Positions 221 to 48,030 are shown, counted from the stretch's first letter. The stretch is 48,150 nt of DNA from Halobacteriales archaeon (GCA_042219105.1 JBDGQL010000093.1:1-48150), one strand, 5' to 3'. Notes: a model not told the origin generated them from the letters alone. Made by a program: numbers and translations.

Positions 221-1732
221 ATGTCGCGAGGAGACGATATTGAGCGCCCGAACGTCCTGTACGTGATGGCCGACGACCACGCTGCGAACGCGATAGGCGC
301 GTACGGCTCACATCTCACGGAGGTCGCACCGACCGAGAACATCGATCGACTGGCTCATGAGGGGGCTCGGCTCGACAACTGCACGTGTACAAACTCGATT
401 TGCACGCCCAGCAGGGCGTCGATTCTCACCGGTCAGCACAGCCATACCAACGGGGTGAGGACGCTGGCCGACGAGATGGATCCCGATCGGAGGCATCTCG
501 CACACCACCTCCAGGATGCGGGCTACCGGACGGGGATCGTCGGGAAATGGCATTTAGAAACCGAGCCACAGGGGTTCGATTACTACAACGTTCTCCCGGG
601 ACAGGGGCGGTACGACGACCCGCTACTGAAACGACGAGGCGAGCCGTGGGATGGTGATGGACAGGTTTACGACGGTTACTCCGCGGACGTGATCACAGAT
701 CAGGCGCTGGGCTGGCTGGAGGGCACAGTGGGTGGAGGAGCCGGGCACGGGGACGACCCCTTCTTTTTGCAGTGTCATTTCAAGGCACCGCACAGAGCAT
801 GGAAGTACCCACACCGCCACGCGGACCTGTTCGAGGGGAGGCGGATCCCCGAACCGGCTAGCCTCTTCGAGGACAAGTCACACCGGTCAAAAGCGGGGCG
901 CGAACACGGATCCAGGATCTCCTCGAAAAACCCCGTACAGCCGATGGTCGAAGAGGTGAAGGCGGGCGACCTGGGACGCGAGGGAGGCATCGACACGACT
1001 GGCATGGACGAGAAAACCCGCACCCGGGCGGCGTATCAGCGCTATCTATCGGACTACCTGCGCACGATAGCGGGCATCGACGATAACGTGGGGCGACTGC
1101 TCGACTACCTCGATGACGCCGGACTCGCCGAGGACACGCTCGTGATCTACACCTCCGATCAGGGGATGTTCCTCGGCGAGCACGATCAGTATGACAAACG
1201 GTGGATGTACGAGGAGTCCCATCGGATGCCGTTCATCGCACGGTATCCGGAGGAGATCCCGGCTGACACGTTCGTCGATGATCTCGTGGCGAACGTGGAT
1301 TTCGCACCCACGATCCTCGACTATGCCGGCGTTGACGTTCCCGACCGGATGCAGGGCCGGAGCGTCCGCGGGAGTCTCGCCGGCGACCCGTCTGCCGATT
1401 CGAGGGAGGCGGTGTACTACCGCTACTGGATGCATCGGGCACACCACGACGTGCCTGCACACTACGGGCTTCGTACCGACCGGTACAAGCTGATTTTCTT
1501 CTACGGACTACCGTTGGATGCGACCAACGCAGGTGATGACCCCTCTCCCCCCGGATGGGAGCTGTACGATCTGGAGCGTGATCCACACGAACTGAACAAC
1601 GTGTATGACGACCCCGCCTACGCCGACGTTCGCGAGGAGTTGAAACGCCGGCTCACCGAGCGCAAGCGAGCCCTCGGCGACGAGGACGATGGGTACCCGG
1701 AACTGGTCGAGTTGAAAGAAAAACACTGGTGA
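221..1732 (+). CDS. Type I sulfatase (Cys-type), no signal peptide
   Basis: ORF 158..1732; the internal ATG at 221 (MSRGDDIERPNVLYVMADDH) has the TATA spacing. It has the DDH metal-site motif, the formylglycine motif CTPSRASILTG (C-x-P-x-R) and GKWHL. Confidence 0.9.
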   Translation: MSRGDDIERPNVLYVMADDHAANAIGAYGSHLTEVAPTENIDRLAHEGARLDNCTCTNSICTPSRASILTGQHSHTNGVRTLADEMDPDRRHLAHHLQDAGYRTGIVGKWHLETEPQGFDYYNVLPGQGRYDDPLLKRRGEPWDGDGQVYDGYSADVITDQALGWLEGTVGGGAGHGDDPFFLQCHFKAPHRAWKYPHRHADLFEGRRIPEPASLFEDKSHRSKAGREHGSRISSKNPVQPMVEEVKAGDLGREGGIDTTGMDEKTRTRAAYQRYLSDYLRTIAGIDDNVGRLLDYLDDAGLAEDTLVIYTSDQGMFLGEHDQYDKRWMYEESHRMPFIARYPEEIPADTFVDDLVANVDFAPTILDYAGVDVPDRMQGRSVRGSLAGDPSADSREAVYYRYWMHRAHHDVPAHYGLRTDRYKLIFFYGLPLDATNAGDDPSPPGWELYDLERDPHELNNVYDDPAYADVREELKRRLTERKRALGDEDDGYPELVELKEKHW

Positions 1733-1800
1733 GGCCGTATCCACGATCCGGTGGCTTCGAAGAAGGCCATTGCGAAGGGAGCATCGACCGGGTCTTTTTA

Positions 1801-1878
1801 TACGGGTCGACAGAACTATTGATAGAATTCGCCACCCCGGGATGACGAATATCTCCATCGAGTCACAGCCGACAGTAT
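1801..1878 (+). mobile_element. Chimeric MITE with a B-type left arm and a C-type right arm, 78 bp, flanked by TA/TA
   Basis: The left end TACGGGTCGACAGAACTATTGATAGAATTCGCC matches MITE-B. The right end CGAATATCTCCATCGAGTCACAGCCGACAGTAT matches MITE-C. The join lies in the shared GAATTCGCC..CCGG core. Confidence 0.75.
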
Positions 1879-1883
1879 TAATT
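1876..1883 (+). promoter_or_regulatory. TATA-like box for the CoA-transferase gene, formed at the MITE end and its TA flank
   Basis: TATTAATT is centred about 27 nt upstream of ATG 1906. Bases 1876-1878 belong to the chimeric MITE and 1879-1880 are its flanking TA. Confidence 0.4.
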
Positions 1884-1905
1884 GATGCGGGTGCGAGCCG
1901 TGGCT

Positions 1906-3120
1906 ATGGAACAGGCGCTATCAGGTGTAACAGTTGCAGACTTCTCCCAGATGATGCAGGGCCCCTGGGCGACACAGAAACTGGCAGAGATGGGAGCAGA
2001 CGTGATCAAGATCGAACGCATCGGCGGCGAGTGGGAGCGAACCCTGGCTCCGGGTGGTGAACTCCAGGAGGGCGTCAGCCCTTTTTTCCTGGCGATGAAT
2101 CGTAACAAACGTAGCATCACTCTTGATCTCAAGGAACCCGAGGGGCACTCTATCGCCCTTGACATCGCCTCGGAAGCCGATATTCTGTTCGAGAACTTCA
2201 GACCTGGCGTCATGGATCGGCTAGATCTGGGCTACGACGACGTCACCGAAGTCAACCCTAATATCGTTTACGTCTCTGGGTACGGGTTCGGGAGTGACGG
2301 TCCATACGTCGACCGACCGGGCCAGGACCTCCTGTTGCAGGCGATGAGCGGCCTAACAAAAACGACGGGCCGGAAGAACGATCCGCCGACGCCGGCGGGG
2401 TCCGCAGTCGTCGACGAGCACTCGAGTATGCTTCTGGTGTTCGCTACGATGGTCGCGCTCTTTCATAAGGAACGTACGGGAGAGGGCCAACACGTCGAGG
2501 GGAATCTCTTCAGTGCCGCAATCGACTTCCAGTGCCAGGAGATCACTGCCGAGCTATCGTTGGAAAAGGAGTTCGAACGGAGTGACGCCGGGATCGCGAG
2601 CCCGTACAACGAACCTCCCTACGGTATCTACGAGACTGCCGATGGACACATCGCCATCGCCATGGCGGAAATTCTGACGTTGACAGACATCCTCGACATC
2701 AATCCGTCCACGTTGCCCCCGTTCGACGCCCCGGCGGAGTCGTTCGAGAACCGAGACGAGATCAAACGGATAATCGAGGAACACACGCGGGAGCAACCCA
2801 CTGAAAAGTTGTTAAACGACCTGCTGGCCGAGGACGTCTGGACCGCGGAGGTGAACGATTTCGAGGATCTCGTGGACGACCCGCAGGTGGAGCACAACGA
2901 GATGCTCGTCGAAATGGACCACGAGGAGTACGGCTCCTTCACGACCACGGGAATTCCGGTTTCGCTGTCGGAGACGCCCGGCGAAATCTCCTCGACGCCT
3001 CCAGTACCGGGAGAGCACACTCACGAGATTCTCACCGACCTCGGATACGACGAGGAGATGATCCAGTCCGCCATCGAAGGCGGGATCACGACGTCGCCAC
3101 ACTCCGATAGTTCGGACTGA
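1906..3120 (+). CDS. Family III CoA-transferase (CaiB/BaiF type)
   Basis: ORF 1882..3120 starts at TTG; ATG 1906 (MEQALSGVTVADF) is preferred. Motifs: GPWATQKLAEMGADVIKIE, NRNKRS, ENFRPGV, GYGFGSDGPY..GQDLLLQAMSG. Confidence 0.88.
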   Translation: MEQALSGVTVADFSQMMQGPWATQKLAEMGADVIKIERIGGEWERTLAPGGELQEGVSPFFLAMNRNKRSITLDLKEPEGHSIALDIASEADILFENFRPGVMDRLDLGYDDVTEVNPNIVYVSGYGFGSDGPYVDRPGQDLLLQAMSGLTKTTGRKNDPPTPAGSAVVDEHSSMLLVFATMVALFHKERTGEGQHVEGNLFSAAIDFQCQEITAELSLEKEFERSDAGIASPYNEPPYGIYETADGHIAIAMAEILTLTDILDINPSTLPPFDAPAESFENRDEIKRIIEEHTREQPTEKLLNDLLAEDVWTAEVNDFEDLVDDPQVEHNEMLVEMDHEEYGSFTTTGIPVSLSETPGEISSTPPVPGEHTHEILTDLGYDEEMIQSAIEGGITTSPHSDSSD

Positions 3121-3257: not shown

Positions 3258-5222
3258 TTACGCCGGATCGATCCGAACCCGTGCCTCGCGGAAGCGCCGG
3301 AGGGTTCGGTCGTCCCACTGCAGACTGACGGGGACGACGTGGATCCCGGCCTCGGCATTCGCGGGCACGCCCAAGATGAGTTCGATCGATCCGTTCTCGC
3401 CGGGAGCGACTGACGAGGACGGCCATCGTCTGTCGATTTTCCGGACCCCTTCTCTCTCGTGATACGGGTCGACAGAACTGTTGATAGAATTAGCCTCCAC
3501 CGTACCCGGCGAATATCTATCAGGACTTCTGTCGACCCGTAGATTCCATGTCCAGCCCGGCGGTAACTCCGGGCGGGCCGCAAACTCCCGATTCCGGTCC
3601 GCGTAGTTCGTGACACAGACGTCTATCTGTGCGTTCTCGCCCGGTGCGCGCGTCTGGTCGTACGGGACGCACCGCGCCCAGTGGGGATCGAGCCCGAAGT
3701 CGGGGTGCTCCCAGGCAAGGAGCTCGCCGAACAGTTCCTCCCGCTCGCGCAGGTTCTTCCGCATGAAGATCATCTGGTCGTCAGTGAACGTGAAGGGATC
3801 TTCGACGTGACAGTTGAACACGTGCGTCGGATCGAGGTCCTCCACTGTGTCGAGACACTGCCGGTATCCCCGGTTGGCGCCGACGGGGTTCCGGTTGTGG
3901 GCACAGTAGTCATCCATCCCGCTCGGCGTGAACGCGTCCCCCGCAAAGAGGAGCCGCCGGCCACGCCCTTCGGCGAGCAGGGCGGCGTGGTACCGTGTCT
4001 GTCCCGGGAGCCAGTGCGCCGAGAGCGTCCATTCGTGCCAGTTCCACTCCTCGCCGTCCGTGAAGACGCGGTCCACGTCGATCCGATCCGGGATCTGACA
4101 GGGCAGACGGTACACCTCGGGCGCCTCTATGACGTCGGCGACATGGCGCTCCGCCAGGATCGGGGCGTCGAATGACTCTTGGAACTCTGGGACGGCCCCG
4201 ACGTGATCGTGGTGGTAGTGCGTGAGCCAGAGTGCGGATATCTCCCGCGCCTCGCCTTCGGTTATCCACGACCGGAGGCGGTCAAGAACGTCGACCCACC
4301 CACAATCCATGGCGAGGGCGTGACCGTCGGCAGAGAGCAAGGCCCAGGTGGTGCCGACGTGCTTCACTTCCGGCGGGCAGGGCGTCGGGTCTCTGACGGG
4401 CATCGTGTCCTCGGCGAACGGGCTGTCGAACATCTCGGGACCGTAGTGTCTGAGAGCTGACGTGCGCACGTAGGCCCGGTACGCCGCTTCGATCAGTTGG
4501 CTCACCGAATCCACGACTTCGGACGGTCGGTGGATCGGATCCCCACGAGCAGGGACTATTACGTCAGCGTCCGAGATCCGTGCCAGACTACCGAGATACC
4601 GCTTTCGGTCCCCGAGGAAACCGTGGTAGTCGTTCCAGTCGCCGTGATATCGCTGCAAACTGTAGGCGTCCCACAGCGCCCCTGTCCCGTGGAGTAGGTC
4701 GCCGGAGAAGATGTACCGTGCATCCGATCCATCGCGCGCCTGTGCCAAGTCGAACGCATACGAGACGCTGTTCTCGGTGTGTCCTGGCGTGGGGAGAACT
4801 TCGAACCGCAGGTCGCCGAGGACGACGTCTTCGGCCGGTTCGACGATCTCGTCGACCGGAATCGGGCGCGCCGGGAGCAAGGGATGCGGGCGGAAGTCCG
4901 TCAGGTGCCACCGAAACTCCGGGTCGACCCAGAACTCCGCCACCGACTCGAAATACTCGCGCTCTGCGGCGGGGACGACGATGTCGATGCCTCGTCGGGC
5001 GAGAGAGCGCGCACCACCCGCCGTGTCCCGGTGGTAGTGTGTAAAAAGGGCCGCCTTGATATCGAATCTTCGGCTCTCCTCAAGCTCGTCGACGATGGAC
5101 GCGTCGTCGCAGTCGATTAGGACGGCCTCGCCGCCTTCGTGAACGACGCTCACGTTCGTCGAGGACCGGTAGAGACCGACGCCTTCGTCGAGACGGTGCC
5201 ATCCCGTGATCGCCCGGCTCAT
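3258..5222 (-). CDS. Tandem metallo-beta-lactamase-fold hydrolase carrying an in-frame MITE insertion
   Basis: 654-aa ORF with two MBL repeats. The N-terminal repeat has the degenerate motif THYHRDT and the second has the canonical THYHHDHVG (HxHxDH). The residues LRVDRSPDRYSPGTVEANSINSSVDPY near the C-terminus are encoded by MITE-B (3463-3541) plus one flank. Confidence 0.8.
   Translation of the reverse strand: MSRAITGWHRLDEGVGLYRSSTNVSVVHEGGEAVLIDCDDASIVDELEESRRFDIKAALFTHYHRDTAGGARSLARRGIDIVVPAAEREYFESVAEFWVDPEFRWHLTDFRPHPLLPARPIPVDEIVEPAEDVVLGDLRFEVLPTPGHTENSVSYAFDLAQARDGSDARYIFSGDLLHGTGALWDAYSLQRYHGDWNDYHGFLGDRKRYLGSLARISDADVIVPARGDPIHRPSEVVDSVSQLIEAAYRAYVRTSALRHYGPEMFDSPFAEDTMPVRDPTPCPPEVKHVGTTWALLSADGHALAMDCGWVDVLDRLRSWITEGEAREISALWLTHYHHDHVGAVPEFQESFDAPILAERHVADVIEAPEVYRLPCQIPDRIDVDRVFTDGEEWNWHEWTLSAHWLPGQTRYHAALLAEGRGRRLLFAGDAFTPSGMDDYCAHNRNPVGANRGYRQCLDTVEDLDPTHVFNCHVEDPFTFTDDQMIFMRKNLREREELFGELLAWEHPDFGLDPHWARCVPYDQTRAPGENAQIDVCVTNYADRNREFAARPELPPGWTWNLRVDRSPDRYSPGTVEANSINSSVDPYHEREGVRKIDRRWPSSSVAPGENGSIELILGVPANAEAGIHVVPVSLQWDDRTLRRFREARVRIDPA
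3463..3541 (+). mobile_element. MITE-B copy, 79 bp, flanked by GA/GA, inside a CDS
   Basis: TACGGGTCGACAGAACTGTTGATAGAATTAGCCTCCACCGTACCCGGCGAATATCTATCAGGACTTCTGTCGACCCGTA. GA at 3461-3462 is repeated at 3542-3543. The coordinates are anchored on the codons of ORF 3258..5222. Confidence 0.9.
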
Positions 5223-5456
5223 TAGCCCTATCTCGCGCAGCCTTGATCAAGAAACTCCCGGTCGATCTCCTATATTTCGCACCCCTCTACCACGGACGAT
5301 CAATTTCTCCTCTGGCGGTTAGTCTGGAATTGGAGGAACCGCATTTACGGGTCGAGGGAAGTCCTGATAGTGCCATTTTCGCCGTGACCTTTCAGCTGCA
5401 TTCATAATCAACTGCTCAGGATCACACTTCGCCTGGAAGTGCGACGATTCAACAAC

Positions 5457-5462
5457 ATTTAT
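5457..5462 (+). promoter_or_regulatory. TATA-like box for the crotonase gene
   Basis: ATTTAT is centred about 27 nt upstream of ATG 5487. Confidence 0.35.
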
Positions 5463-5486
5463 CATCACCTCAGGACACGTCCACCC

Positions 5487-6263
5487 ATGAGTGATACCGT
5501 ACAGTCTGACGTCACGGGGCGGGTAGCGGAAGTCACGATCGACCGGCCGGACAAACTGAACGCGCTCACTACGGAGACGAACACGGCGCTCCGGGAGCGC
5601 TTCGAGGCACTGGAACACCGGGACATCGACGTCGTAATCCTGAAATCGGCCGGCGACAGGGCCTTCGTCGCCGGGGCCGACATCAACGAGATATCGGACC
5701 TGACGACCCGGGAGTTCATCGATTTTCAGAGGAACGGACGGGAGACCAACGACACCATCGCCTCCCATCCGGCGATAGTGATCGCGGCTGTGAACGGGAT
5801 CGCGTTCGGCGGCGGGTTCGAACTCGCCCTCGCAAGCGACATGATCGTCGCCGGTGAGGGTGCGTCGTTCGCGACGCCGGAGGTACAAATCGGGCTGGTT
5901 CCGGGCGGAGGAGCCACACAACGGCTCCCGGAGGTCGTCGGGCCGAACAAGGCGAAGGAACTGTTGACGACGGGCGACCCGATCACGGCGGCGGAAGGCG
6001 AAGACCTGGGCCTGGTCAACCGCGTCGTCGACGACGACTCGGTTGAGGAGGAAGCTCGTGACCTGGCGGGCGATATCGTCGGCAACGCACCACTGGCCAT
6101 CCGCGAGGCAAAAACACTCGTTGACGAGGGACAAAACATGCCGCTTCCGGAGGGACTCTCCTACGAACAGAGCGTGACGTTCACGCTGTTCGAGAGCGAC
6201 GACGTCACCGAAGGCATCGCATCGTTCGTCGAGGATCGCGATCCGGAGTTCGCCGGACAGTAA
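5487..6263 (+). CDS. Enoyl-CoA hydratase/isomerase (crotonase) family
   Basis: ORF 5439..6263; ATG 5487 (MSDTVQSDVTGRVAEVTIDRPDKLNALT). Motifs: FVAGADI, NGIAFGGGFELALASD. Confidence 0.88.
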   Translation: MSDTVQSDVTGRVAEVTIDRPDKLNALTTETNTALRERFEALEHRDIDVVILKSAGDRAFVAGADINEISDLTTREFIDFQRNGRETNDTIASHPAIVIAAVNGIAFGGGFELALASDMIVAGEGASFATPEVQIGLVPGGGATQRLPEVVGPNKAKELLTTGDPITAAEGEDLGLVNRVVDDDSVEEEARDLAGDIVGNAPLAIREAKTLVDEGQNMPLPEGLSYEQSVTFTLFESDDVTEGIASFVEDRDPEFAGQ

Positions 6264-6286: not shown

Positions 6287-6475
6287 TACACTCGGACACG
6301 AATAGTTCAACACGCAGGTCGATTATACGGGTCGACAGAAGCCGTGATAGATATTCGCCGGTACGGCAGAGGCGAATTCTATCAACAGTTCTGTCGACCC
6401 GTATATTCCCGGTCAAAACGATGTCTCCCGGTCGATCAGGGGACGATCACGTTGACTGGTTCGTGTCCGGGTGTA
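6287..6475 (-). mobile_element. MITE-D copy carrying a nested MITE-B
   Basis: The termini are TACACTCGGACACGAA ... TTCGTGTCCGGGTGTA. It is the reverse complement of the uninterrupted copy at 8159..8267, apart from the 78-bp element plus TA at 6326-6405. TA is present on both outer flanks (6285-6286, 6476-6477). Confidence 0.85.
6326..6403 (-). mobile_element. MITE-B copy (78 bp) nested in MITE-D, TA target duplication
   Basis: The filled site reads GGTCGAT-TA-[TACGGG...CCCGTA]-TA-TTCCCGG. The empty site in the other D copy (reverse complement of 8221-8240) reads GGTCGAT-TA-TTCCCGG. Confidence 0.9.
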
Positions 6476-6479: not shown

Positions 6480-8012
6480 TCACGTCGACTCGAGAAGGTC
6501 GGCGTACTGCTCGGCGAGTTGATCCGCGTGGTGTGCGCGGTCGGTGTCGCGCAACCGCTGTAGATACCGCTCGAGCTTTGGAACGTTCTGCGTGGTGTGA
6601 AACGGCCCACCCTCGTTGATGACGGTCCAGAGAGGATCACGCAGTCCGGTCGGTGGGTCTGGATTGCCACCCCGACGGTCCTCGGACGATTCGGCCATCC
6701 GGTCGGCGTGCCAGGCTTCGAGGCGGCGAATGCCCTCCGCAGTGACGCCCGGCCGTTCGTCCGACAGGTCCCTCGTCTGGTGTGGATCGGCGACGAGGTC
6801 GTACAGAGCCACTTCCGGGACGTCCTTGACCCCGTCGTGGTACGTCCTGAGTAACAGCCAGTCGCCCCAGCGGACTCCGCGTTGGCACGTGAGAGCGGCC
6901 TGGCTGAGCACGAGGGTCTCGCGTCCCGCCGAATCCCCGTCAGCGAGCGACGGCTCGAACGACTGGCCGTCCCACCGGTCGGGGGCTGTCGCTCCGATGC
7001 GTTCGACCATCGTTGGAGCGAGGTCGAGGTGATAGTGCAAGTCCCCGTCCACGCCAGGCGTCACGTCCGGACCGTGGACGATCAGCGGGATACGGCCCGT
7101 GGGATAATCGGCCGTGTGGTGGTCGCCGTAGATGTTCAGTTCACCCTGGTTCTCGCCGTGGTCGGCGGAGACGATGACCAGGGTGTCCTCGAAGACCCCC
7201 TTCTCACGGAGGACGTCGAGCACGTATCCGATGTGTTCGTCCATGTATCGTACCCCGACGTCGTAGGCGTCGATCCACTCGACGAAATCCCCCCTGGAGC
7301 CGATTTCCGCGGGTGTCCGTGGGAGTTCCGCGTCCTCACCCCAATCCAGAGCCACCTCCGGCGTTTTACCGACGCCGTGGAGATCCTGAGCGCTGTGTGG
7401 CCCGTAGCTGCGATACTGCTCGTAGATAGTCTCCTCGTCCGGAAACGACGGTGCAGTGCCGGCGTCGAACGGCGTTCCGTACTCCACCGGCGTGTCGTAG
7501 GGTGTGTGTGCGTCCCAGAAGTTGACGTGCAAAAACCAGTCCTCATCCGTTGCGTGGGTTTGCAGCCAGTCGATGGCCGGGTCGCACACCTCTTCAGCGA
7601 GTTCGAACCCACCCTTGCCGGTGTCGCGCCACTCCCGAAACCCATCGAGCACGTGCCACGCGCCGTGACGAGTCGGGAACGGGCTGATCGAGGCCGTGTA
7701 GTGTCCGGCATCACGGAGGACGGCCGTAAGCGTCTCAAAGCCCGGGGCACCCGCGAATCCGCGACGATCTCCGATCGGTCGTGGTTCCGATGCGAGACCG
7801 CCGTGGTTCACGACGCCCGTATGAATGCCGAACCGGCCAGTGAACAGTGCTGTCCGTGACGGTAAACAGGGAAGATCCGAGGCATAGACGTTCGTGAACC
7901 GACGACCGTCGGCAGCGAGTCCGTCGATCGTCGGTGATGTCTCCCGGTCGTACCCATAGCAGCCGAGATGATCCGCACGAAGCGAATCGCAGTCTACGTA
8001 CAGGATGCGCAT
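6480..8012 (-). CDS. Sulfatase (alkaline-phosphatase superfamily, Cys-type), no signal peptide
   Basis: ORF 6480..8036; the second ATG at 8012 (MRILYVDCDSLRADHLGCYG) lies 27 nt from an AT-rich box. The formylglycine motif is CLPSRTALFTG. It is a paralog of 33323..34870. Confidence 0.85.
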   Translation of the reverse strand: MRILYVDCDSLRADHLGCYGYDRETSPTIDGLAADGRRFTNVYASDLPCLPSRTALFTGRFGIHTGVVNHGGLASEPRPIGDRRGFAGAPGFETLTAVLRDAGHYTASISPFPTRHGAWHVLDGFREWRDTGKGGFELAEEVCDPAIDWLQTHATDEDWFLHVNFWDAHTPYDTPVEYGTPFDAGTAPSFPDEETIYEQYRSYGPHSAQDLHGVGKTPEVALDWGEDAELPRTPAEIGSRGDFVEWIDAYDVGVRYMDEHIGYVLDVLREKGVFEDTLVIVSADHGENQGELNIYGDHHTADYPTGRIPLIVHGPDVTPGVDGDLHYHLDLAPTMVERIGATAPDRWDGQSFEPSLADGDSAGRETLVLSQAALTCQRGVRWGDWLLLRTYHDGVKDVPEVALYDLVADPHQTRDLSDERPGVTAEGIRRLEAWHADRMAESSEDRRGGNPDPPTGLRDPLWTVINEGGPFHTTQNVPKLERYLQRLRDTDRAHHADQLAEQYADLLEST

Positions 8013-8034
8013 ACGCCGTTCATCGCCAAGAAAC

Positions 8035-40155: not shown

Positions 40156-40157
40156 TA

Positions 40158-40236
40158 TACGGGTCGACAGAAGTCCTGATAGATATTCGCCGGGTACGGT
40201 GGAGGCTAATTCTATCAACAGTTCTGTCGACCCGTA
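40158..40236 (-). mobile_element. MITE-B copy, 79 bp
   Basis: It starts 2 nt after the sulfatase stop TGA (40153-40155), with TA at 40156-40157. It abuts MITE-E on the right. Confidence 0.88.
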
Positions 40237-40312
40237 TACTGTCGGACGGAACTGTTGATAATTTCGCTCGCCCACCGTGCGAGCAGAATATCATTCGTTC
40301 CGTCCGATAGTA
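40237..40312 (+). mobile_element. MITE-E, a 76-bp variant related to MITE-A
   Basis: The termini TACTGTCGGACGGAAC ... GTTCCGTCCGATAGTA match 15 of 16 as inverted repeats. The inner arms GATAATTTCGCTCGC / GCGAGCAGAATATC pair. TA follows at 40313-40314. Confidence 0.7.
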
Positions 40313-40326
40313 TATTAACCGATCCG

Positions 40327-41606: not shown

Positions 41607-43124
41607 CTACTCCCTGTGGGCGTCTTCCGGGTCGTCGCGGTCGATCGAATATCCCGGCCCTCCGAGATGGTCGAGCGGCGTGGGGTTCGTGGCGCCCCCG
41701 TGTTCCCACCAGCGCCGGGTCCAGATCGTGTGTGCCTCGGTCTCCCCCTCCCGGGGAGCGGAACGGTCTCCCGGGATCACCGGCTCCTCGGTGGTCGCGT
41801 AGAAGTCGAGCAGCCGTTCGGTCAATCGTAGCCGAACCGATCGGTACTCCTCCTCGTCGTAGAGATCGTCGTGCTCCCAGGGGTCCTCGCTGATGTGGTA
41901 CAGCTCCCCACCCTCACCGTTGACGTAGTGCGTCAGTTTCCACTCGTCGGTCCGTATCGTCCGGTGGGTTGTATCCTCACAGACGGTTACCTCCCGGTCG
42001 ACCGTCCCATCACCGGCGAGGACGCCGGCCAAGCTCTCTCCCTGCACCGGGTCCGGAACCGGGAGATCCAGAAGGTCACACAGCGTCGGAAACACGTCGA
42101 TGCTCTCGACGAGATCGCCGTTGACGGCGTCGGATCGAGCGCCTTCCGGCCACCGCCACACCATCGGGATCCGGTGGACCGCCTCCGAGATGCCGACGTT
42201 CTTCCGCACGAGGCCGTGCTCGCCGGCGAAGTCACCGTGATCCGACCCGAACACCACGACGGTGTTCTCCAACTCGCCGGTCTCCCAGAGGTGTGACAGG
42301 ACGCGGCCGATCTGCTCGTCGATCAGCGTGATCAGCGCGTAGTAGTAAGCGACGACCTGACTGATGTCGGCGTCGCTGCTTTGCTGGAACAGGTCGCGTC
42401 GCGCGGCCGCCTGCCACTCGGGGGGCTTGTCGTCGAACTCGCCGTCATCCCGGGGTGGGAGATCTATCTCCGCCGGATCGTACAGATCGGCGTACTCCGG
42501 GGGTGGGCAGTACGGGGGGTGGGGCCGCTGGAAGGACATCCACGCGAAAAAGGGGTCGTCGCCGTTTCTCTCCCGTAGCCAGCGCAGGGTTTCGTCCGCG
42601 GTCCACCGCTCGACGCTGTGTTCGGCCGGAATGTTCGAGACGAACGCGGTGTGTGGGTACTCGGTCGAGGCCGGGCCGAGGTCGTACTCCTCGGAATACC
42701 CCACCCGTTCGAGATACTGGTAGTAGTCGTTCTCGTGGGGGTGGTCGGCGACGTCTGAGAAGTCACAGGTCCGGCGGACGTCGAACCCGTGTGTCGTCCA
42801 GTCGATCGGGAGGTGGAGTTTGCCGAACCCGCCGGTGTCGTAGCCGTTGTTCCCGAGGTGCCGGGCGAGCGAGAGCGTGTCGTCGGGAACGCCGCCGTAG
42901 TTGCCGTACACCCCGTGGCTGTGTGGGTACCGACCGGTCATGTAGCTCATCCGGGAGGGCATACAGATGGGGTTCTGACAGTAGGCGCGATCGAAGCGAA
43001 CGCCCTCGGCGGCCAGGCGATCGATTGCCGGCGTCTCGACGGTGTCGTTTCCGTAACACCCCAGACACCGGGCGTTGTGCTGGTCGTCCATGATAAAGAG
43101 GACGTTCGGCGAGTCCGATGACAT
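41607..43124 (-). CDS. Type I sulfatase (Cys-type), no signal peptide
   Basis: MSSDSPNVLFIMDDQH, CMPSRMSYMTG. Confidence 0.9.
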   Translation of the reverse strand: MSSDSPNVLFIMDDQHNARCLGCYGNDTVETPAIDRLAAEGVRFDRAYCQNPICMPSRMSYMTGRYPHSHGVYGNYGGVPDDTLSLARHLGNNGYDTGGFGKLHLPIDWTTHGFDVRRTCDFSDVADHPHENDYYQYLERVGYSEEYDLGPASTEYPHTAFVSNIPAEHSVERWTADETLRWLRERNGDDPFFAWMSFQRPHPPYCPPPEYADLYDPAEIDLPPRDDGEFDDKPPEWQAAARRDLFQQSSDADISQVVAYYYALITLIDEQIGRVLSHLWETGELENTVVVFGSDHGDFAGEHGLVRKNVGISEAVHRIPMVWRWPEGARSDAVNGDLVESIDVFPTLCDLLDLPVPDPVQGESLAGVLAGDGTVDREVTVCEDTTHRTIRTDEWKLTHYVNGEGGELYHISEDPWEHDDLYDEEEYRSVRLRLTERLLDFYATTEEPVIPGDRSAPREGETEAHTIWTRRWWEHGGATNPTPLDHLGGPGYSIDRDDPEDAHRE

Positions 43125-43181: not shown

Positions 43182-44696
43182 ATGCCGTCACGCAACGTTC
43201 TCGTCGTCCTCTGTGACCAGCTCCGCCCGGACTTCCTGTCCGCGTATGGATGTGGGGCGGTTTCCACGCCCAACATCGACCGGCTGGCAGACGCAGGTAT
43301 CGTGTTCGAGAACGCGATCACCCAGTCCACGGTGTGTGCCCCGGCCCGGGCAACGATGATGACGGGCCGGTACGTGTCCGACCACGGGGTCTGGACCAAC
43401 GACGTCCCGTTCCGGGACGGCCTCGAATACCTCCCCGAACGGATGAACGAGGCCGGGTACGCGACCGGGGCGTTCGGGAAACTCCATCACTATCCCTCCC
43501 ACGACGCCAAGGGCTTCCGGGAAACCGACCTGATGGAAGAGGGCCGCCTGGGCGAGTCGGAGCCGTACCTGCAGTGGCTCAGGTCACGACGGCCGGATGT
43601 CGAAGGGATCTGGAACTACGACGACTACACCTTCGCCTTCGACGAGGAGGAGTACCACGAACACTGGATCGCCTCGCGGGCCATCGAGTTCATTGAGCGA
43701 CGCGCCGACGAGGGACCCTTTCTCACGTGGGTCTCCTTCCAGGGGCCACACGCCCCACTCGACCCGCCATCAGCCGTGAAGGGAATGGTCGATGCCGAAC
43801 AGCTTCCGGAGCCCCTCGAACGGCCCGACGACGACCTCGCTCCCGTCGCCCGGTACAGAAAGGCCCGCAGTCCCGGCGCCGAATCTCGCGGGGAGGTGAT
43901 GGCCCGGCGGACCGCGTACGCCGAGATCATCGTCGAAATCGATCGCCAGATCGGCCGGCTCCTCGATCGCCTAGAAGCACTCGACGTCATGGCGGAGACG
44001 ACCGTCATCTTCACCGCCGACCACGGTGACCTGCTGGGGGATTTCGGCCTCGAGGCAAAGGGGCCGTATCCATATCGCGGACAGCTCGACGTCCCGATGA
44101 TCGTCGCCAATCACCCGGAACTACCCTCGGGAGCACGCTCGGATCGGCTCGTCGGCACGATCGACGTTCCGGGAACCTGTCTCGACGTCGCCGGCGTCGA
44201 CGAACGGATCGGCGCCACGCGGTCGGTCATCGAGCAGGTGAACGCGCCGGCCGAACACGCCAGGGACGTCGTCTTCAGCGAGTTCTGTGACTCGATCAAG
44301 ACTGTCTACGACGGGCGGTACCTGTACAGCTACTATCCGTTTTCGGAGCGAAGCGAACTGTACGACCGCAACGAGGATCCCGACGAGACACGGAACCTGG
44401 CAGGGGATCCGGAACACGCACGGACCGAGACGAGGATGCTGAAACACCTGCTCGATTTCGGAACCCTGACCGGCGGCGTCCGCGTCGAGGCACACGACAT
44501 GGTTCCCGACCAGCAGACCGGTCTCCGCGAGAAACACCCCCGGTTCGACCGGGAGTTCGAGGTCGCGTACCCGCTGTCCGCCGCGGACCGGGAGAAACTC
44601 CGGGAGGCCGGGCTCTCGACGGACTACAACGAGTTCTGCCGGGGGGAGGATCCGGTCGCCAACTACGCGGACCCATACTGGGTCGACGACGGGTAG
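43182..44696 (+). CDS. Type I sulfatase (Cys-type), no signal peptide
   Basis: MPSRNVLVVLCDQLRPDF, CAPARATMMTG. Confidence 0.88.
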   Translation: MPSRNVLVVLCDQLRPDFLSAYGCGAVSTPNIDRLADAGIVFENAITQSTVCAPARATMMTGRYVSDHGVWTNDVPFRDGLEYLPERMNEAGYATGAFGKLHHYPSHDAKGFRETDLMEEGRLGESEPYLQWLRSRRPDVEGIWNYDDYTFAFDEEEYHEHWIASRAIEFIERRADEGPFLTWVSFQGPHAPLDPPSAVKGMVDAEQLPEPLERPDDDLAPVARYRKARSPGAESRGEVMARRTAYAEIIVEIDRQIGRLLDRLEALDVMAETTVIFTADHGDLLGDFGLEAKGPYPYRGQLDVPMIVANHPELPSGARSDRLVGTIDVPGTCLDVAGVDERIGATRSVIEQVNAPAEHARDVVFSEFCDSIKTVYDGRYLYSYYPFSERSELYDRNEDPDETRNLAGDPEHARTETRMLKHLLDFGTLTGGVRVEAHDMVPDQQTGLREKHPRFDREFEVAYPLSAADREKLREAGLSTDYNEFCRGEDPVANYADPYWVDDG

Positions 44697-44775
44697 TACG
44701 GGTCGACAGAACTGTTGATAGAATTAGCCCCCACCGTACCCGGCGAATCTCTATCAGGACTTCTGTCGGCCCGTA
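44697..44775 (+). mobile_element. MITE-B copy, 79 bp, first unit of a head-to-tail dimer
   Basis: It begins on the nucleotide after the sulfatase stop TAG (44694-44696). A single TA (44776-44777) separates it from the second unit. Confidence 0.88.
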
Positions 44776-44777
44776 TA

Positions 44778-44856
44778 TACGGGTCGACGGAACTGTTGAT
44801 AGAATTAGCCTCCACCGTACCCGGCGAATATCTATCAGGGCTTCTGTCGACCCGTA
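44778..44856 (+). mobile_element. MITE-B copy, 79 bp, second unit of the dimer
   Basis: It has the same orientation as the first unit and differs from it at a few positions. TA follows at 44857-44858. Confidence 0.88.
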
Positions 44857-44896
44857 TAGCCCCGCGCCACGGACCCGGTCGGTGTCCCGGCCGGAA

Positions 44897-46225
44897 TCAC
44901 ACGTGAACGCGGCCGTGATCGAACTCGAAGGTGAGGACGCTCTCCGCGAAGTCGTAGGACGCCTGCCGTTTGATCGCCCGATCATCGTAGGCGAGGGCGT
45001 TCTCGACGATCGCCTCCTGTAGCTCCCCGATGGGCGCCTCGCCGGGATCCGCCGCCAGATTCTCGCGCTGGTAGGGATCCTCCGCCATGTCGAAGAGATA
45101 CCGGGTTTTGAGGTTCCGCTCGACGGCAAACAGGTACCGTTCGGTTCGCACCGCCCGCCACTCGTTGTCGCCCGCTATACCGCCCTGCAGGTACGTGCTC
45201 GTTGGCCGTGGGCCGTCCTCGCCACGTAACACGCACGAGAGATCCTGACCCTGGGCCGTCTCGGGGATCGGAACGTCACAAAGCGACAGCAACGTCGGCA
45301 GCAGGTCGTTCAGGTTGGCGAACGTCTCGGTTCGTTCTCCGGCGTCGACGGCTCGCGGGTACCGAACCAGCAGCGGGACGTTGCTTGCCTCTTCCAGGGG
45401 AGAGCCCTTGCCGTACTGGCCGTGCGAACCCATGAACTCGCCGTGGTCGGCGGTGAACAGGACGACGGTATCCTCCGTGAGATCGCGGTCGTCGAGCGCG
45501 TCCAAAAGCCGGCCCACCTGATCGTCGAGCGCCGTGATGCACGCGTAGTAGTCGGCAAGGGTTTCTCGGGCTTCGTCGGCGGCCTCGGCGGGCACGTTCG
45601 ACCGGAGATCGAGGTCTTCCGGATCGTACCGGTCGTGGTACTGTTCGGGTGCCTCGAAGGGACTGTGTGGCGGCCCCCAGGAAAGAAACAGAAACCACGG
45701 CAACGAGCGATCTGAATCGAGGAAGTCGAGCGCCAGATCCGTCTGGATCGCCGGCTGATACCCCTCCTCCCACCGTTTTTCCCCGTTCTCGAAGAAGGGG
45801 TGGCCCCTCATGTGGTAGTGCCCGCGATCGAACCCGCGCCAGTACTCGTACCCCCGGCGTCGCTCCGGCGGGACGAACGCCTCGGCCTCGTCGTGGGTCC
45901 CATCGAGGTGCCACTTGCCGATGTACCCCGTCCGGTACCTGGCCTCGTGCATGCACTCCCCGAGCGTGTCGAACTCGGTCGGGAGGGGGATCTGCTTGTA
46001 CGTGTTCCCGATGACGCGGTGTCGGTGCGAGTAACAGCCGGTCTGGATGCTCCCCCGGGCGGGCGAACAGACCGGGTTAGAGGAGTAGGCGTTCTCGAAG
46101 GTCAGTCCCTCGGCCGCGATGCGGTCCAGATTCGGCGTATCGACCTGCGCGTTTCCCATGCATCCGAGCGCCTGGGCGCGATACTGATCCGTCAGCACGA
46201 GCAGGACGTTGGGTCGATCCGACAT
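44897..46225 (-). CDS. Type I sulfatase (Cys-type), no signal peptide
   Basis: MSDRPNVLLVLTDQYRAQALG, CSPARGSIQTG, GKWHL. Confidence 0.9.
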   Translation of the reverse strand: MSDRPNVLLVLTDQYRAQALGCMGNAQVDTPNLDRIAAEGLTFENAYSSNPVCSPARGSIQTGCYSHRHRVIGNTYKQIPLPTEFDTLGECMHEARYRTGYIGKWHLDGTHDEAEAFVPPERRRGYEYWRGFDRGHYHMRGHPFFENGEKRWEEGYQPAIQTDLALDFLDSDRSLPWFLFLSWGPPHSPFEAPEQYHDRYDPEDLDLRSNVPAEAADEARETLADYYACITALDDQVGRLLDALDDRDLTEDTVVLFTADHGEFMGSHGQYGKGSPLEEASNVPLLVRYPRAVDAGERTETFANLNDLLPTLLSLCDVPIPETAQGQDLSCVLRGEDGPRPTSTYLQGGIAGDNEWRAVRTERYLFAVERNLKTRYLFDMAEDPYQRENLAADPGEAPIGELQEAIVENALAYDDRAIKRQASYDFAESVLTFEFDHGRVHV

Positions 46226-46294: not shown

Positions 46295-46315
46295 CCGACC
46301 CTATGATAGGGTCGG
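46295..46315. promoter_or_regulatory. Perfect 9-3-9 palindrome, candidate operator
   Basis: CCGACCCTA-TGA-TAGGGTCGG lies about 45 nt upstream of the TATA-like box. The related half-site CCGACCCTATCA repeats at 46378-46389. Confidence 0.35.
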
Positions 46316-46334
46316 TTGTGAGTCATTTTCGGAT

Positions 46335-46358
46335 CGACCGCACGACGGCGTGCGGTCG
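46335..46358. other. Perfect 10-bp-stem hairpin downstream of the sulfatase gene at 46387
   Basis: CGACCGCACG-ACGG-CGTGCGGTCG. No adjacent T-run, so terminator function is unproven. Confidence 0.3.
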
Positions 46359-46386
46359 TCCCGGTACACAGTTCCAGCCGACCCTA

Positions 46387-48030
46387 TCACTCCTCCCCGT
46401 CTTGAACGGTAAAGGAGGCCTCGCTGACGCCGCTGTCCGCAAACCCATACCGGACCGCCTTCGCCCGAACGCGGGTCTCCCCGGTCGGGAGTTCGATCGG
46501 GCCGGTGTAGACGTTCCAGTCGCTCTCGCCCAACCGGTACACGATCGACGCGCCCTCCGTCGTCGAGTGGAGCATGAGTTCGGCCGGCGCCCGGAGCGTC
46601 CCGCCCTCCGGCGAAGGCTCGACGCCGAACTGCGACCGGGTCATCGGAGCGAACAGCGGCTCCCGGGCCGTCGGCTGCTCACCGCTTGGCCAGGACCGTT
46701 CGACCGTCCGGTACTCCGGGTCCAGTCCCCGGTCGTCCGTGCGCTCGAGCCACGCGTCGAGCGCGTCGCGCAACCGGTCGAGCGTCCCGGCGTACTCCGG
46801 ATCGCCGGCGACGTTGTTCACCTCGTGGGGATCGGCGTCCAGGTCGTACAGTTCTTCGGGAGGGCGAGTCTCGCGGAAGAACCACTTCTCGGGACCCTCG
46901 AGATCGCCCTCGAGGTGGAGGCGGTGGAGCTCCTGCCACGCCGGATGGCGGCTCCGGTAGGAGTTCCACCGGAGATACGGCTCCTCGGGGCGGTAGTTGC
47001 GGACGTACTTGTACCGGTCGTCCCTGACCGCCCGGACCGTGTCGTAGAAGTCGTCGTGGCGGTCGCGGGCGGCGTAGACGTACTCGCGTTCCCCATCGCG
47101 GGCGGGTCCGAGAACGGCCCGGCCGTGCATATGCTGGGGCACCGCAAGGCCGGCCAGCGACAGCGTCGTCGGGCCGACATCGACCAGGCTGACGAGTTCG
47201 TCGCTCACCGTCCCGGCGGGCACCTCGCCGGGCAGTCGGACGATCAGGGGGACGCGGATTCCCGAGTCGTAGAGCCAGCGCTTCCCGCGTGGCAACCCCT
47301 CGCCGTGATCGCTGAAAACGAAAACTGCCGTGTCCTCGAGGAGTCCGTCGGCCTCCAGTCGGTCCAAGACGTCGCCGACCTGCTCGTCGGCCCGCTCGAT
47401 GTTGTCGTAGTGGCGGGCCAGCGCACGCCGGGTATCGGGGGCGTCCGGGAGATAGGGCGGCAGATCGACGTCGCCGGGGTCGGTGGCGAGCGACTCCCCA
47501 TCTTCGGGCCACATGCCGCTCTCGTGTGTCTGGGAGGGGTTCACCATCGAGAAGAACGGCTGGCCGGCGTCGCGGCCACGCCAGTCCGCGTCCGGGGTCG
47601 CGTCGTCGAACGCCGATTCCGGGACGCCAAACTGGAAGTCGGCGTGCTGTCCCTCGATGGTGCAGTAATAGCCCGCCCGCCGGAGGTACTCGGCAACGAG
47701 TTTCACGTAGTGGGGTGGCACCGGCGTGTACGGGCCGGGCAGTCCCTCGCTGTCGCGGCTCGTGCGGTGGTGGTGTGATCCGAGCGCGGTCTGGTACATC
47801 CCGGTGTGGAGGGCCGAACGGCTCGGCGAACACACCGGCGACGGGCAAAAGGCGTTCGTGTACCGCCGGCCCTTCGCGGCGATCCGATCGAGGTTCGGAG
47901 AGCGAGCGAGGTCGTCGCCATAACAGCCAAACCGGGGGCTCGCGTCTTCGAGGAGTAGCCAGAGGACGTTCGGACGTCGGGGGGGTGAATCAGTCCGTGA
48001 CACGACCGAGCGACCTCGCGCAGCACACAT
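46387..48030 (-). CDS. Type I sulfatase (Cys-type) with an extra C-terminal domain, no signal peptide
   Basis: 547 aa. Motifs: SPPRRPNVLWLLLED, CSPSRSALHTG. About 90 extra C-terminal residues (APAELMLHSTTEGASIVYRLGESDWNVYTGPIELP...). Confidence 0.88.
   Translation of the reverse strand: MCAARGRSVVSRTDSPPRRPNVLWLLLEDASPRFGCYGDDLARSPNLDRIAAKGRRYTNAFCPSPVCSPSRSALHTGMYQTALGSHHHRTSRDSEGLPGPYTPVPPHYVKLVAEYLRRAGYYCTIEGQHADFQFGVPESAFDDATPDADWRGRDAGQPFFSMVNPSQTHESGMWPEDGESLATDPGDVDLPPYLPDAPDTRRALARHYDNIERADEQVGDVLDRLEADGLLEDTAVFVFSDHGEGLPRGKRWLYDSGIRVPLIVRLPGEVPAGTVSDELVSLVDVGPTTLSLAGLAVPQHMHGRAVLGPARDGEREYVYAARDRHDDFYDTVRAVRDDRYKYVRNYRPEEPYLRWNSYRSRHPAWQELHRLHLEGDLEGPEKWFFRETRPPEELYDLDADPHEVNNVAGDPEYAGTLDRLRDALDAWLERTDDRGLDPEYRTVERSWPSGEQPTAREPLFAPMTRSQFGVEPSPEGGTLRAPAELMLHSTTEGASIVYRLGESDWNVYTGPIELPTGETRVRAKAVRYGFADSGVSEASFTVQDGEE

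Follow-up and report, generated by a model that had tools for sequence, protein, structure and literature searches.

A putative sulfatase-rich glycan-utilisation island with an apparently all-cytoplasmic layout in a haloarchaeal genome

Few pools of marine carbon resist degradation as strongly as sulfated polysaccharides, and to our knowledge only some bacterial phyla with exported sulfatases, few in number, have so far been credited with breaking them down. Here we describe a stretch of 48,150 nucleotides from a Halobacteriales archaeon (GCA_042219105.1, JBDGQL010000093.1:1-48150; the whole stretch is called the window), in which 11 of about 35 genes (S01 to S11) encode sulfatases. The closest described system is also haloarchaeal. 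Haloarchaeal isolates are reported to grow on chondroitin sulfate A, and a genome-based proposal of May 2026 has sulfated disaccharides (chondroitin-4-sulfate disaccharides) imported and then desulfated in the cytoplasm by a single exosulfatase encoded in a plasmid island that resembles a polysaccharide-utilisation locus (PUL) (PMC13260240). Like the window, the islands of the Natronoarchaeum and Haloarcula H-hyl isolates in that study are haloarchaeal accessory islands for which import followed by cytoplasmic desulfation and cleavage is proposed, and ATP-binding cassette (ABC) transport occurs both in that system and in the relatives of the window. The described system targets hyaluronan and chondroitin-4-sulfate with its one exosulfatase, a secreted polysaccharide lyase of family PL8, and glycoside hydrolases of families GH88 and GH154, whereas the window has eleven divergent sulfatases, no lyase, no GH88, and neighbours of the 6-deoxyhexose and sugar-acid type. 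Of the parts of such a PUL-like island, the window holds the cytoplasmic exo-enzymes only; importers and signal-less glycosidases are found in related islands.

Sulfatase-rich systems in bacteria, such as the PULs of Bacteroidota and the carrageenan loci of Pseudoalteromonas (PMC12549532), combine many S1 subfamilies with sugar catabolism as the window does, and a fucoidan megaplasmid of Lentimonas sp. CC4 is another sulfatase-rich counterpart (cited in PMC11685898). The exo-sulfatase subfamilies S1_8, S1_11, S1_15, S1_16 and S1_19 are common to the bacterial systems and the window. On the other hand, most of the bacterial sulfatases leave the cytoplasm for the periplasm or the cell surface, whereas in the haloarchaeal islands all proteins but the binding protein are apparently cytoplasmic, and the bacterial systems rely on SusC/D or TonB-dependent uptake and many glycoside hydrolases, while the window has neither a SusC/SusD pair nor any glycoside hydrolase. 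A module of Mesobacillus foraminis shares with the window a signal-less sulfatase (51% identical to S11), the logic of uptake followed by cytoplasmic desulfation, and the lack of a periplasm; it differs in having one sulfatase and a phosphorylative route (ROK kinase), where the window has a multi-enzyme battery and oxidative pathways. The rhc L-rhamnose diketo-hydrolase pathway on plasmid pHV3 of Haloferax volcanii uses the same enzyme families as the window, but the window proteins miss the Rhc equivalog scores, and the pHV3 region contains an ABC transporter and no sulfatases. An ortholog of the second Gfo/Idh/MocA oxidoreductase of the window (GFO2; 77% DNA identity) lies on pHV3 between a GH88 gene and the rhc cluster.

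In 2016, SulfAtlas recorded S1 sulfatases from Halobacteria (PMC5066984). Our search of the literature on haloarchaea and sulfatases or sulfated polysaccharides, carrageenan, fucoidan and ulvan found no functional study beyond PMC13260240 and PMC11980604, and none of multi-sulfatase haloarchaeal islands. An earlier reading of the window from its DNA alone (the original prediction) had known of no characterised all-cytoplasmic sulfatase battery in Archaea. This stands for the study of multi-sulfatase islands, but cytoplasmic desulfation has been proposed in PMC13260240, and one plasmid of Halomontanus rarus carries 24 sulfatase genes. Multi-sulfatase haloarchaeal islands are not unique to the window and exist unremarked in public genomes. 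From its gene content, the window appears to be a sulfatase-rich glycan-utilisation island of all-cytoplasmic layout in an archaeon, ordinary in principle and uncharacterised.

Eleven Cys-type sulfatases and the evidence for their location

On the evidence of family and motif, all eleven open reading frames (ORFs) are type I (formylglycine-dependent) Cys-type S1 sulfatases. Each matches the Pfam family PF00884 (Sulfatase) with an E value of 1e-31 to 5e-67 and 110-227 bits, against a gathering cut-off of 25, and the first positions of the model (1-4) align 4-15 residues from the start Met in ten of them. The C-x-P-x-R motif stands at residue 49-82 of the chosen start in every protein. The original prediction had listed these eleven ORFs and their motifs exactly; the positions that it gave belong to real ORFs, and mark the ORF boundaries rather than the motif sites (Table 1). 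The T/S-G that follows the motif is kept in ten copies and is T-A in S05. An alignment of the eleven proteins shows no variation in the Cys, Pro and Arg of C-x-P-x-R, in one His, or in the metal-site Asp (D-H/N/Q-G), and the N-terminal metal-binding acidic residue is always present (Asp, but Glu in S11). Both Lys positions are occupied in eight copies and absent from S02 and S05, while in S11 the region of the first Lys could not be aligned. All eleven ORFs are intact, of full length compared with their homologs, and keep the catalytic residues. S07 has a C-terminal extension of about 150 amino acids and an alternative start at 38347, and the CHB_HEX_C_1 domain of S11 is at its C-terminus.

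The pairwise identity among the eleven proteins is only 22-37%. Because of this low mutual identity, the copies are not recent duplicates, and different specificities are suggested. The eleven copies are a collection of different enzymes and not a recent tandem amplification. Their density in the window is not a chance pattern. S02 and S05 (35% identical to each other) form a divergent clade that has D-x-D-S-L-R at the first metal site and C-L-P-S-R at the formylglycine motif, with both Lys missing; the clade also occurs in H. rarus (segments L006 28050-29600 and L011 28744-30267), and no close relative of it is characterised or of solved structure. Three pairs of genes are divergent, as was predicted, with spacers of 226 bp (S04/S05), 94 bp (S06/S07) and 57 bp (S08/S09) in which AT-rich, TATA-like elements precede the start codons by about 25 nt, a spacing compatible with leaderless haloarchaeal transcripts. 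Long antisense ORFs, for example 46303-47778(+), had no family matches and were rejected as GC-rich shadow frames.

The eleven sulfatases have, as read from the DNA, no room for a signal peptide. In all eleven genes an upstream in-frame stop lies 10-57 residues before the first conserved beta-strand, and in ten of the eleven intervals between that stop and the strand there was no 12-residue window above 0.8 on the Kyte-Doolittle scale and no twin-arginine motif. The exception is S01, in which a mildly hydrophobic upstream stretch sits inside a non-coding repeat element. The absence of signal peptides claimed by the original prediction is therefore borne out by the positions of these stops. Two controls show what exported relatives look like. 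Of 80 S01 homologs from metagenomes (44-67% identity), 70 begin with an N-terminal extension of 18-60 residues that is hydrophobic or twin-arginine, in several cases with an RRDFL-type twin-arginine translocation (Tat) motif; the homologs without an extension include the closest, high-G+C relatives. In related haloarchaeal islands the ABC substrate-binding proteins begin with Tat-lipobox signals, such as RRKWLGMLGAASAAAMAGC, whereas the sulfatases and glycosidases of the same islands have none. Since the sulfatases are predicted to stay cytoplasmic, their substrates would have to be imported and desulfated inside the cell.

Table 1. Genes and repeated elements of the 48,150-nt window, with positions counted from its first nucleotide
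Feature	Position	Strand	Motif; Cys codon	Family evidence and remarks	Closest PDB structures (E value)
Sulfatase S01	221-1732	+	CTPSR; 401-403	PF00884 2e-51 plus SGSH_C; resembles S1_11 hexose-6-O-sulfatases	7LHA exo-L-galactose-6-sulfatase (2e-131); 5G2V N-acetylglucosamine-6-sulfatase
Sulfatase S02	6480-8036	-	CLPSR; 7866-7868	PF00884 2e-38; divergent, no subfamily	weak matches only
Sulfatase S03	21087-22541	-	CSPTR; 22380-22382	PF00884 1e-53; S1_16-like	6UST (6e-158); 9FO1 kappa-carrageenan sulfatase S1_16 (8e-123)
Sulfatase S04	31606-33096	-	CTPTR; 32923-32925	PF00884 1e-49; S1_15-like galactose/N-acetylgalactosamine (Gal/GalNAc)-6-O-sulfatase	6S20 GalNAc-6-O-sulfatase (8e-71); 9BAS S1_15A (2e-67)
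Sulfatase S05	33323-34870	+	CLPSR; 33467-33469	PF00884 2e-31; divergent	
Sulfatase S06	37011-38330	-	CSPSR; 38178-38180	PF00884 5e-67; S1_19-like	9HH3 S1-19 (7e-65); 6PRM exo-4S-kappa-carrageenan sulfatase (7e-63)
Sulfatase S07	38425-40155	+	CAPSR; 38608-38610	PF00884 3e-58	iota- and kappa-carrageenan 4-sulfatases, S1_19 (about 1e-53)
Sulfatase S08	41607-43124	-	CMPSR; 42963-42965	PF00884 3e-51; intermediate	7OZ8 (2e-51); 6HHM (4e-41)
Sulfatase S09	43182-44696	+	CAPAR; 43335-43337	PF00884 4e-47; no close characterised relative	4UPI (2e-42), sole match at E<=1e-40
Sulfatase S10	44897-46225	-	CSPAR; 46067-46069	PF00884 1e-58; intermediate	2QZU (6e-67); 6J66 chondroitin/dermatan 4-O-endosulfatase; 9IHK S1_30A
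Sulfatase S11	46387-48030	-	CSPSR; 47830-47832	PF00884, SGSH_C, CHB_HEX_C_1; S1_8-like	best 9BB9 S1_8A (2e-95)
CoA-transferase III	1882-3120	+			
Protein with two metallo-beta-lactamase (MBL)-fold domains, 654 aa	3258-5222	-			
Enoyl-CoA hydratase	5439-6263	+			
Short-chain dehydrogenase/reductase (SDR)	8255-9214	+		adh_short_C2 5e-57, domain from residue 67	
SMP-30/gluconolactonase-family lactonase	9278-10180	-		PF08450 5e-29	
PdxA-family dehydrogenase	10325-11359	-		TIGR00557 353 bits	
Four-carbon acid-sugar kinase	11343-12686	-		D-threonate kinase model 188 bits	
Gfo/Idh/MocA oxidoreductase 1	12774-13865	-		PF01408	
GcvT-family protein, full-length DesA/LigM homolog	14144-15505	-		NF047633 433 bits, NF047885 387 bits, both sub-cut-off	
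NAD-dependent epimerase/dehydratase	15744-16694	+		PF01370 6e-29	
L-rhamnose-mutarotase-family protein (RhaM)	17131-17622	-		PF05336 9e-14	
DUF6807 protein	17669-18667	-		PF14100 4e-68	
Amidohydro_2 protein, candidate sugar lactonase	19048-19791	-		PF04909 2e-26; weak L-fucono-1,5-lactonase match	
Fumarylacetoacetate-hydrolase (FAH) family, candidate 2,4-diketo-3-deoxy-6-deoxyhexonate hydrolase	20062-21069	+		PF01557 8e-66	
LarA-like nickel-pincer-cofactor isomerase (NCBIfam group 22)	23134-24333	+		NF052515 424 bits (cut-off 400)	
DUF7260 protein	24229-24960	-		PF23921 8e-60; no NCBIfam match	
Gfo/Idh/MocA oxidoreductase 2 (GFO2)	25324-26448	+		PF01408	
Enolase-superfamily (MR_MLE) acid-sugar dehydratase	26530-27705	+		PF13378, PF02746	
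Xylose-isomerase-like TIM-barrel protein	27795-28613	-		PF01261 1e-41	
Gfo/Idh/MocA oxidoreductase 3	28610-29596	-		PF01408 1e-23	
IS4-family insertion sequence	29652-31243	+		transposase 29756-30979; NF033592 203 bits	
Zn-dependent alcohol/polyol dehydrogenase	ORF from 34653, probable start about 35016	+		ADH_N, ADH_zinc_N	
Second xylose-isomerase-like TIM-barrel protein	36044-36946	+		PF01261 1e-41	
SDR, glucose-1-dehydrogenase/KduD-like	40369-41169	-		adh_short_C2 1e-52	
Complete repeats, first half	57-137, 3461-3543, 6324-6405, 8078-8159, 8266-8348, 13986-14066, 18703-18783, 18960-19042				
Complete repeats, second half	19818-19898, 20078-20159, 27736-27818, 31407-31488, 40156-40238, 40236-40313, 44695-44777, 44776-44858				
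Partial repeats	1797-1880, 5343, 15601, 16893-16938, 23142				

Characterised relatives and catabolic neighbours

Comparison with the PDB, which covered S01-S04 and S06-S11, showed that S01, S03, S04, S06, S07 and S11 match structures of named carbohydrate S1 subfamilies (E about 1e-53 to 1e-158). We predict that six or more of the eleven proteins, probably eight, are carbohydrate sulfatases, so the concern that most copies might fall in phosphonate or phosphodiesterase clades, which was checked, does not apply. The nearest solved structures are, by homology, mostly exo-acting and partly monosaccharide-specific sulfatases that remove the 2-, 4- or 6-sulfate of galactose. S1_8A and S1_15A complete the cascade that degrades lambda-carrageenan, with free galactose-2-sulfate and galactose-6-sulfate as their substrates, the latter being a substrate of S1_15A (PMC12549532).

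The NCBIfam models that score highest for all copies, below threshold, are arylsulfatase and choline-sulfatase models, which would suit sulfur scavenging or the breakdown of choline-O-sulfate, aryl or alkyl sulfate esters. We consider this role very improbable. None of the eleven copies reaches the equivalog cut-off of the arylsulfatase, choline-sulfatase or PehA model; the best arylsulfatase score is 293 of 481 bits, and the best choline-sulfatase score (S08 against BetC, TIGR03417) is 224 of 433 bits. The nearest structures are carbohydrate sulfatases, and no betaine or choline oxidation genes were found in the window. Hypersaline brines are rich in sulfate, so scavenging of sulfur is unlikely. 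Import followed by intracellular desulfation, as originally predicted, is the best-supported reading for sugars; its extension to osmolytes is not supported by the choline-sulfatase scores.

The 24 further genes of the window, which the original prediction left undescribed, mostly encode enzymes of sugar and sugar-acid catabolism, and these catabolic neighbours are the strongest evidence within the window for a carbohydrate role. All non-sulfatase ORFs of at least 150 amino acids were scanned with Pfam and NCBIfam. Every enzyme family of a non-phosphorylative diketo-hydrolase route for 6-deoxyhexoses (L-rhamnose or L-fucose) is represented: mutarotase, dehydrogenase, lactonase, dehydratase, 2-keto-3-deoxy dehydrogenase and hydrolase. 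The equivalog scores of such a route are missed, with 154 of 500 bits for the hydrolase (the closest model of the FAH protein being NF053535, 2,4-didehydro-3-deoxy-L-rhamnonate hydrolase), 75 of 393 bits for rhamnonate dehydratase and 32 of 400 bits for fuconolactonase. The MR_MLE gene has about 80% DNA identity to genes in sugar-acid clusters of several haloarchaea. Neither a glycoside hydrolase or lyase nor a transporter, a recognisable transcription factor, a formylglycine-generating enzyme (FGE) or an anaerobic maturase (anSME) turned up in the same scans of the window, and tblastn of a haloarchaeal FGE against the window gave nothing better than E = 0.27, in agreement with what had been predicted. 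No tRNA genes were found in the window.

Several neighbours deserve separate mention. Three Gfo/Idh/MocA oxidoreductases, two TIM-barrel proteins and a DUF6807 protein occur in the window, which has no glycoside hydrolase, and the Gfo/Idh/MocA and TIM-barrel families recur beside sulfatases on H. rarus plasmid 1. The GcvT-family protein resembles DesA and LigM, which are tetrahydrofolate-dependent aromatic O-demethylases. Its gene stands among sugar-acid genes. The substrates may be O-methyl sugars, which the protein would demethylate, or else unrelated methoxy-aromatics. The LarA-like protein covers only positions 2-319 of the 392 of its profile, the last about 100 residues of a 470-residue ortholog on a related metagenome contig (L014) have no counterpart in the window, and the 3' end of the gene overlaps the convergent DUF7260 gene; the gene is probably truncated at the C-terminus. 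The window lacks the cofactor genes LarB, LarC and LarE. In L014 the LarA-like gene is likewise linked to MR_MLE and mutarotase genes, a hint that the protein may act on lactate or an acid sugar. The pair of CoA-transferase III and enoyl-CoA hydratase adjoins sulfatase genes in the window, and does so again in a Halobacteriales metagenome-assembled genome (MAG; L007 5865-7974; 77% and 69% identity). The MBL protein was considered as an alkyl sulfatase and rejected, as its domains are two of the MBL type, and the dimerisation and SCP2 domains of alkyl sulfatases are missing.

Related islands, maturation and mobile elements

Related islands supply the parts that the window lacks. Plasmid unnamed2 of H. 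rarus TS33 (NZ_CP119798.1, 176 kb) carries 24 sulfatase genes within 73 kb (13.4-86.3 kb), of which 23 are Cys-type and one has STPSR; the motif stands at residue 49-58 in all of them, so none has a signal peptide. The window and this plasmid have in common signal-less sulfatases, orthologs of S03 (67%), S05 (68%), S06 (56%) and S10 (56%), and neighbouring Gfo/Idh/MocA and lactonase genes. The two are not syntenic, and the plasmid encodes in addition an FGE-family protein (PF03781, 6e-81, 335 aa, signal-less), two GH97 enzymes without signals, a beta-galactosidase-like protein, and an ABC importer whose binding protein is a Tat lipoprotein. The Ser-type copy (record 66581-68215) adjoins a near-identical Cys-type paralog. 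The plasmid is automatically annotated, and we found no functional study of it in the literature. On H. rarus plasmid 1, the genes that flank an S11 ortholog (54%) encode a second sulfatase, an IclR regulator, MR_MLE, an MBL-fold protein, two TIM-barrel proteins, two Gfo/Idh/MocA proteins, DUF2264, an ABC importer and GH2.

The linkage to glycosidases recurs elsewhere. A contig of the Halobacteriales MAG holds IclR, enoyl-CoA hydratase, CoA-transferase (77%), an S07 ortholog (61%) next to an S11 ortholog (84%), and another sulfatase; the S11 ortholog adjoins a signal-less GH29 fucosidase gene. In L014 (61% G+C) an S01 ortholog (67%) lies between a GH78 rhamnosidase gene and a signal-less GH29 fucosidase gene, and the contig also carries another GH29, a fused ABC permease, MR_MLE (79%, adjoining the S01 ortholog), RhaM (60%), a LarA-like gene (64%) and an AGE epimerase. 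A plasmid of Halocatena marina has sulfatases mixed with GH78, BNR proteins, rhcD, rhcF, mutarotase, FGE and a GntP permease. On a 5-kb contig of ENA ERZ24792160, a 94% ortholog of S11 is followed by S09-like (78%) and S08-like (93%) genes, while its neighbour in the window is S10. Since the neighbours of S11 differ between that contig and the window, the gene order of the island shuffles among close relatives. No secreted depolymerase was identified in the window or the related islands.

Cys-type sulfatases depend on a maturase, and the puzzle of its absence from the window is largely resolved by FGE orthologs in sister islands and many haloarchaeal genera. Orthologs of the same length, 63-79% identical and signal-less, are found on plasmids of at least nine haloarchaeal species, and the protein database adds FGE orthologs in Haloferax volcanii, Haloarcula, Halorubrum, Haladaptatus, Halorhabdus, Salinarchaeum, Natronoarchaeum and others. 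Among bacteria in the plasmid collection, both the FGE and S11 have their closest homologs in M. foraminis (NZ_CP033045.1, 220-228 kb), where a ROK kinase, an S1_8-like sulfatase, an MFS transporter, TetR and FGE are encoded together, the FGE (55% identical to the haloarchaeal FGE) and the S11 homolog (51%) being about 3 kb apart. This arrangement suggests that modules of sulfatase plus maturase may have been exchanged between Bacillota and haloarchaea.

Sulfatase-fold proteins may also act in biosynthesis. In Halobacterium salinarum, deletion of the sulfatase-like genes VNG1056C and VNG1057C alters N-glycan sulfation, and nearly all algorithms used predicted VNG1057C to be cytoplasmic, which gives such a role a haloarchaeal precedent (PMC11980604). 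It is nonetheless very improbable that the eleven proteins add sulfate to N-glycans. The window contains no glycosyltransferase, oligosaccharyltransferase (AglB-type), flippase or nucleotide-sugar gene and does not lie in an agl cluster, its neighbours are catabolic, its relatives tie the genes to glycosidases, ABC importers and IclR regulators, and the needs of one glycan would hardly explain eleven divergent copies.

The haloarchaeal character of the genome, also recognised in the original prediction, is supported by three lines of evidence: the proteins are acidic (D+E 17-19% and K+R 7-11%), nucleotide matches in the plasmid collection are solely to plasmids of Halobacteria, and the transposase gene has 71% DNA identity to an ISHth3-family IS4 of Halococcus dombrowskii. 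The G+C content of the window is 60-68%. The plasmid matches are at 71-81% identity, with no window gene above 81%, and their genera include Halocatena, Halomontanus, Natronococcus, Haloarcula, Halomicrobium and Haloferax. The window probably belongs to an accessory island on a megaplasmid. Since both of its ends fall at or in sulfatase genes, the island probably continues beyond it.

The window is also rich in palindromic repeats of about 82 nt, sixteen complete and several partial, in three families with related terminal inverted repeats of about 15-17 nt (TATACGGGTCGACAGAA, ATACTGTCGGACAGA and TATACTGTCGGCTGT). They are nearly all intergenic or at gene ends, with about one per 3 kb, and look like miniature inverted-repeat transposable elements; no match was found in the plasmid collection or Rfam. 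The IS4 element is inserted in a repeat of family B, whose halves are at 29652-29703 and 31195-31243. Some of the repeats inflate the longest-ORF starts of two genes: the 5' part of the SDR ORF at 8255 is repeat sequence, so that its real start is later, and the true start of the FAH gene at 20062 is probably downstream of the repeat that it overlaps. At its 3' end, the MBL ORF runs into another repeat. It is probably these repeats that split short-read contigs of the region into gene-sized pieces. Exact look-ups of the S01 and S11 proteins gave only 1.7-kb Logan contigs of run SRR28304479, and a scan of genome contigs gave only a Latescibacterota MAG at 52% identity.

Several features would fit a decaying relic of horizontally acquired genes with little present function: besides the sixteen repeats and the partial ones, an IS4 sits within one of them, the LarA-like gene is apparently truncated, neither transporter nor maturase lies inside the 48 kb, and even a relative at 94% identity has its genes in another order. 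We regard a relic as highly unlikely, because the eleven sulfatase ORFs are intact and of full length with their catalytic residues kept, the proteins have the acidic composition of resident haloarchaeal proteins, and orthologs of the sulfatases are kept at 56-94% identity in other haloarchaea.

Proposed route and its meaning

Taken together, we propose that sulfated oligosaccharides containing fucose, rhamnose or galactose enter the cell by import, lose their sulfate in the cytoplasm and are finally oxidised, and that the island works like a PUL moved into the cytoplasm; from homology and gene content we put the probability of this reading at roughly 0.65. Uptake of sulfated oligo- or monosaccharides (fucose, rhamnose and/or galactose) would be by a binding-protein-dependent ABC importer encoded outside the window. 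An O2-dependent cytoplasmic FGE, presumably encoded elsewhere in the genome, would turn the Cys of C-x-P-x-R into formylglycine. If active as their homologs are, the eleven non-redundant S1 sulfatases would be exo-acting and would each remove one sulfate ester, specific for the sugar and the ring position. Glycosidic bonds would be cut by signal-less glycosidases outside the window, of the GH29 and GH78 types seen in the relatives. Pairs of Gfo/Idh/MocA oxidoreductases and TIM-barrel proteins can cleave glycosides via 3-keto formation and elimination, and the Gfo/Idh/MocA and xylose-isomerase-like TIM-barrel enzymes of the window may add to this cleavage. The monosaccharides would then be oxidised without phosphorylation by mutarotase, dehydrogenase, lactonase, enolase-type dehydratase, SDR and diketo-hydrolase to pyruvate and lactate.

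The same mechanism of import and desulfation could instead serve glycoconjugates of the brine community, such as sulfated glycolipids, the N-glycans of haloarchaeal S-layers, and sulfated exopolysaccharides from Dunaliella or haloarchaea, in a recycling of necromass. Haloarchaeal glycolipids carry 6-sulfo-mannose and 3-sulfo-galactose. Sulfated exopolysaccharides and N-glycans of haloarchaea are documented (PMC5066984; PMC11980604; the title of PMC9091367), the related islands were sampled from inland salt-lake sediment as well as from intertidal sites, and the specificity of several of the nearest structures for sulfated monosaccharides would suit enzymes that scavenge small fragments. However, the GH29 and GH78 neighbours in the relatives fit fucose- and rhamnose-rich glycans of algal or plant type better, and neither mannosidase nor glucuronidase was seen in the window. 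We consider brine glycoconjugates unlikely as the substrates.

Several observations weigh against import and oxidation of sulfated fucose, rhamnose or galactose glycans. The 48 kb itself has no transporter, glycoside hydrolase, lyase or maturase, and these parts of the proposal are taken from relatives. No sulfatase reaches an equivalog-level score, the substrate calls rest on homology of about 35-60%, and S02, S05 and S09 have no characterised near relative, with S02 and S05 also lacking the two conserved Lys. The haloarchaeal isolates of the chondroitin sulfate study did not grow on fucoidan, nor on heparin or keratan sulfate (PMC13260240). The many repeats, the insertion sequence and one probably truncated gene make some decay possible. 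In addition, the structures favour sulfated galactose or galactans, whereas the gene neighbours favour the 6-deoxyhexoses fucose and rhamnose. The two are not incompatible, because L-fucose is 6-deoxy-L-galactose.

A more far-reaching form of the proposal is that certain haloarchaea specialise on highly sulfated fucose, rhamnose and galactose glycans, which would be imported as intact oligosaccharides and taken through the whole cascade in the cytoplasm, with only a lipoprotein binding protein facing the brine. The salt-adapted sulfatases would be matured by FGE, the glycosidic bonds would be opened in part by the eliminase chemistry of Gfo/Idh/MocA and TIM-barrel enzymes instead of by hydrolases, and a tetrahydrofolate-dependent demethylase would strip the O-methyl groups of the sugars. 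We offer this form only tentatively and regard it as possible but doubtful. If such a fully cytoplasmic cascade is true, it would be the first archaeal pathway for sulfated polysaccharides of algal type and a source of carbohydrate sulfatases for high salt.

If sulfated oligosaccharides are imported and desulfated as proposed, the breakdown of sulfated glycans would extend to Archaea and to hypersaline systems. It would follow an alternative cell layout in which import comes before desulfation because there is no periplasm, and archaea would have a working cytoplasmic formylglycine-generating system. The enzymes of such islands would then be salt-adapted, regiospecific carbohydrate sulfatases for the analysis and tailoring of glycans.

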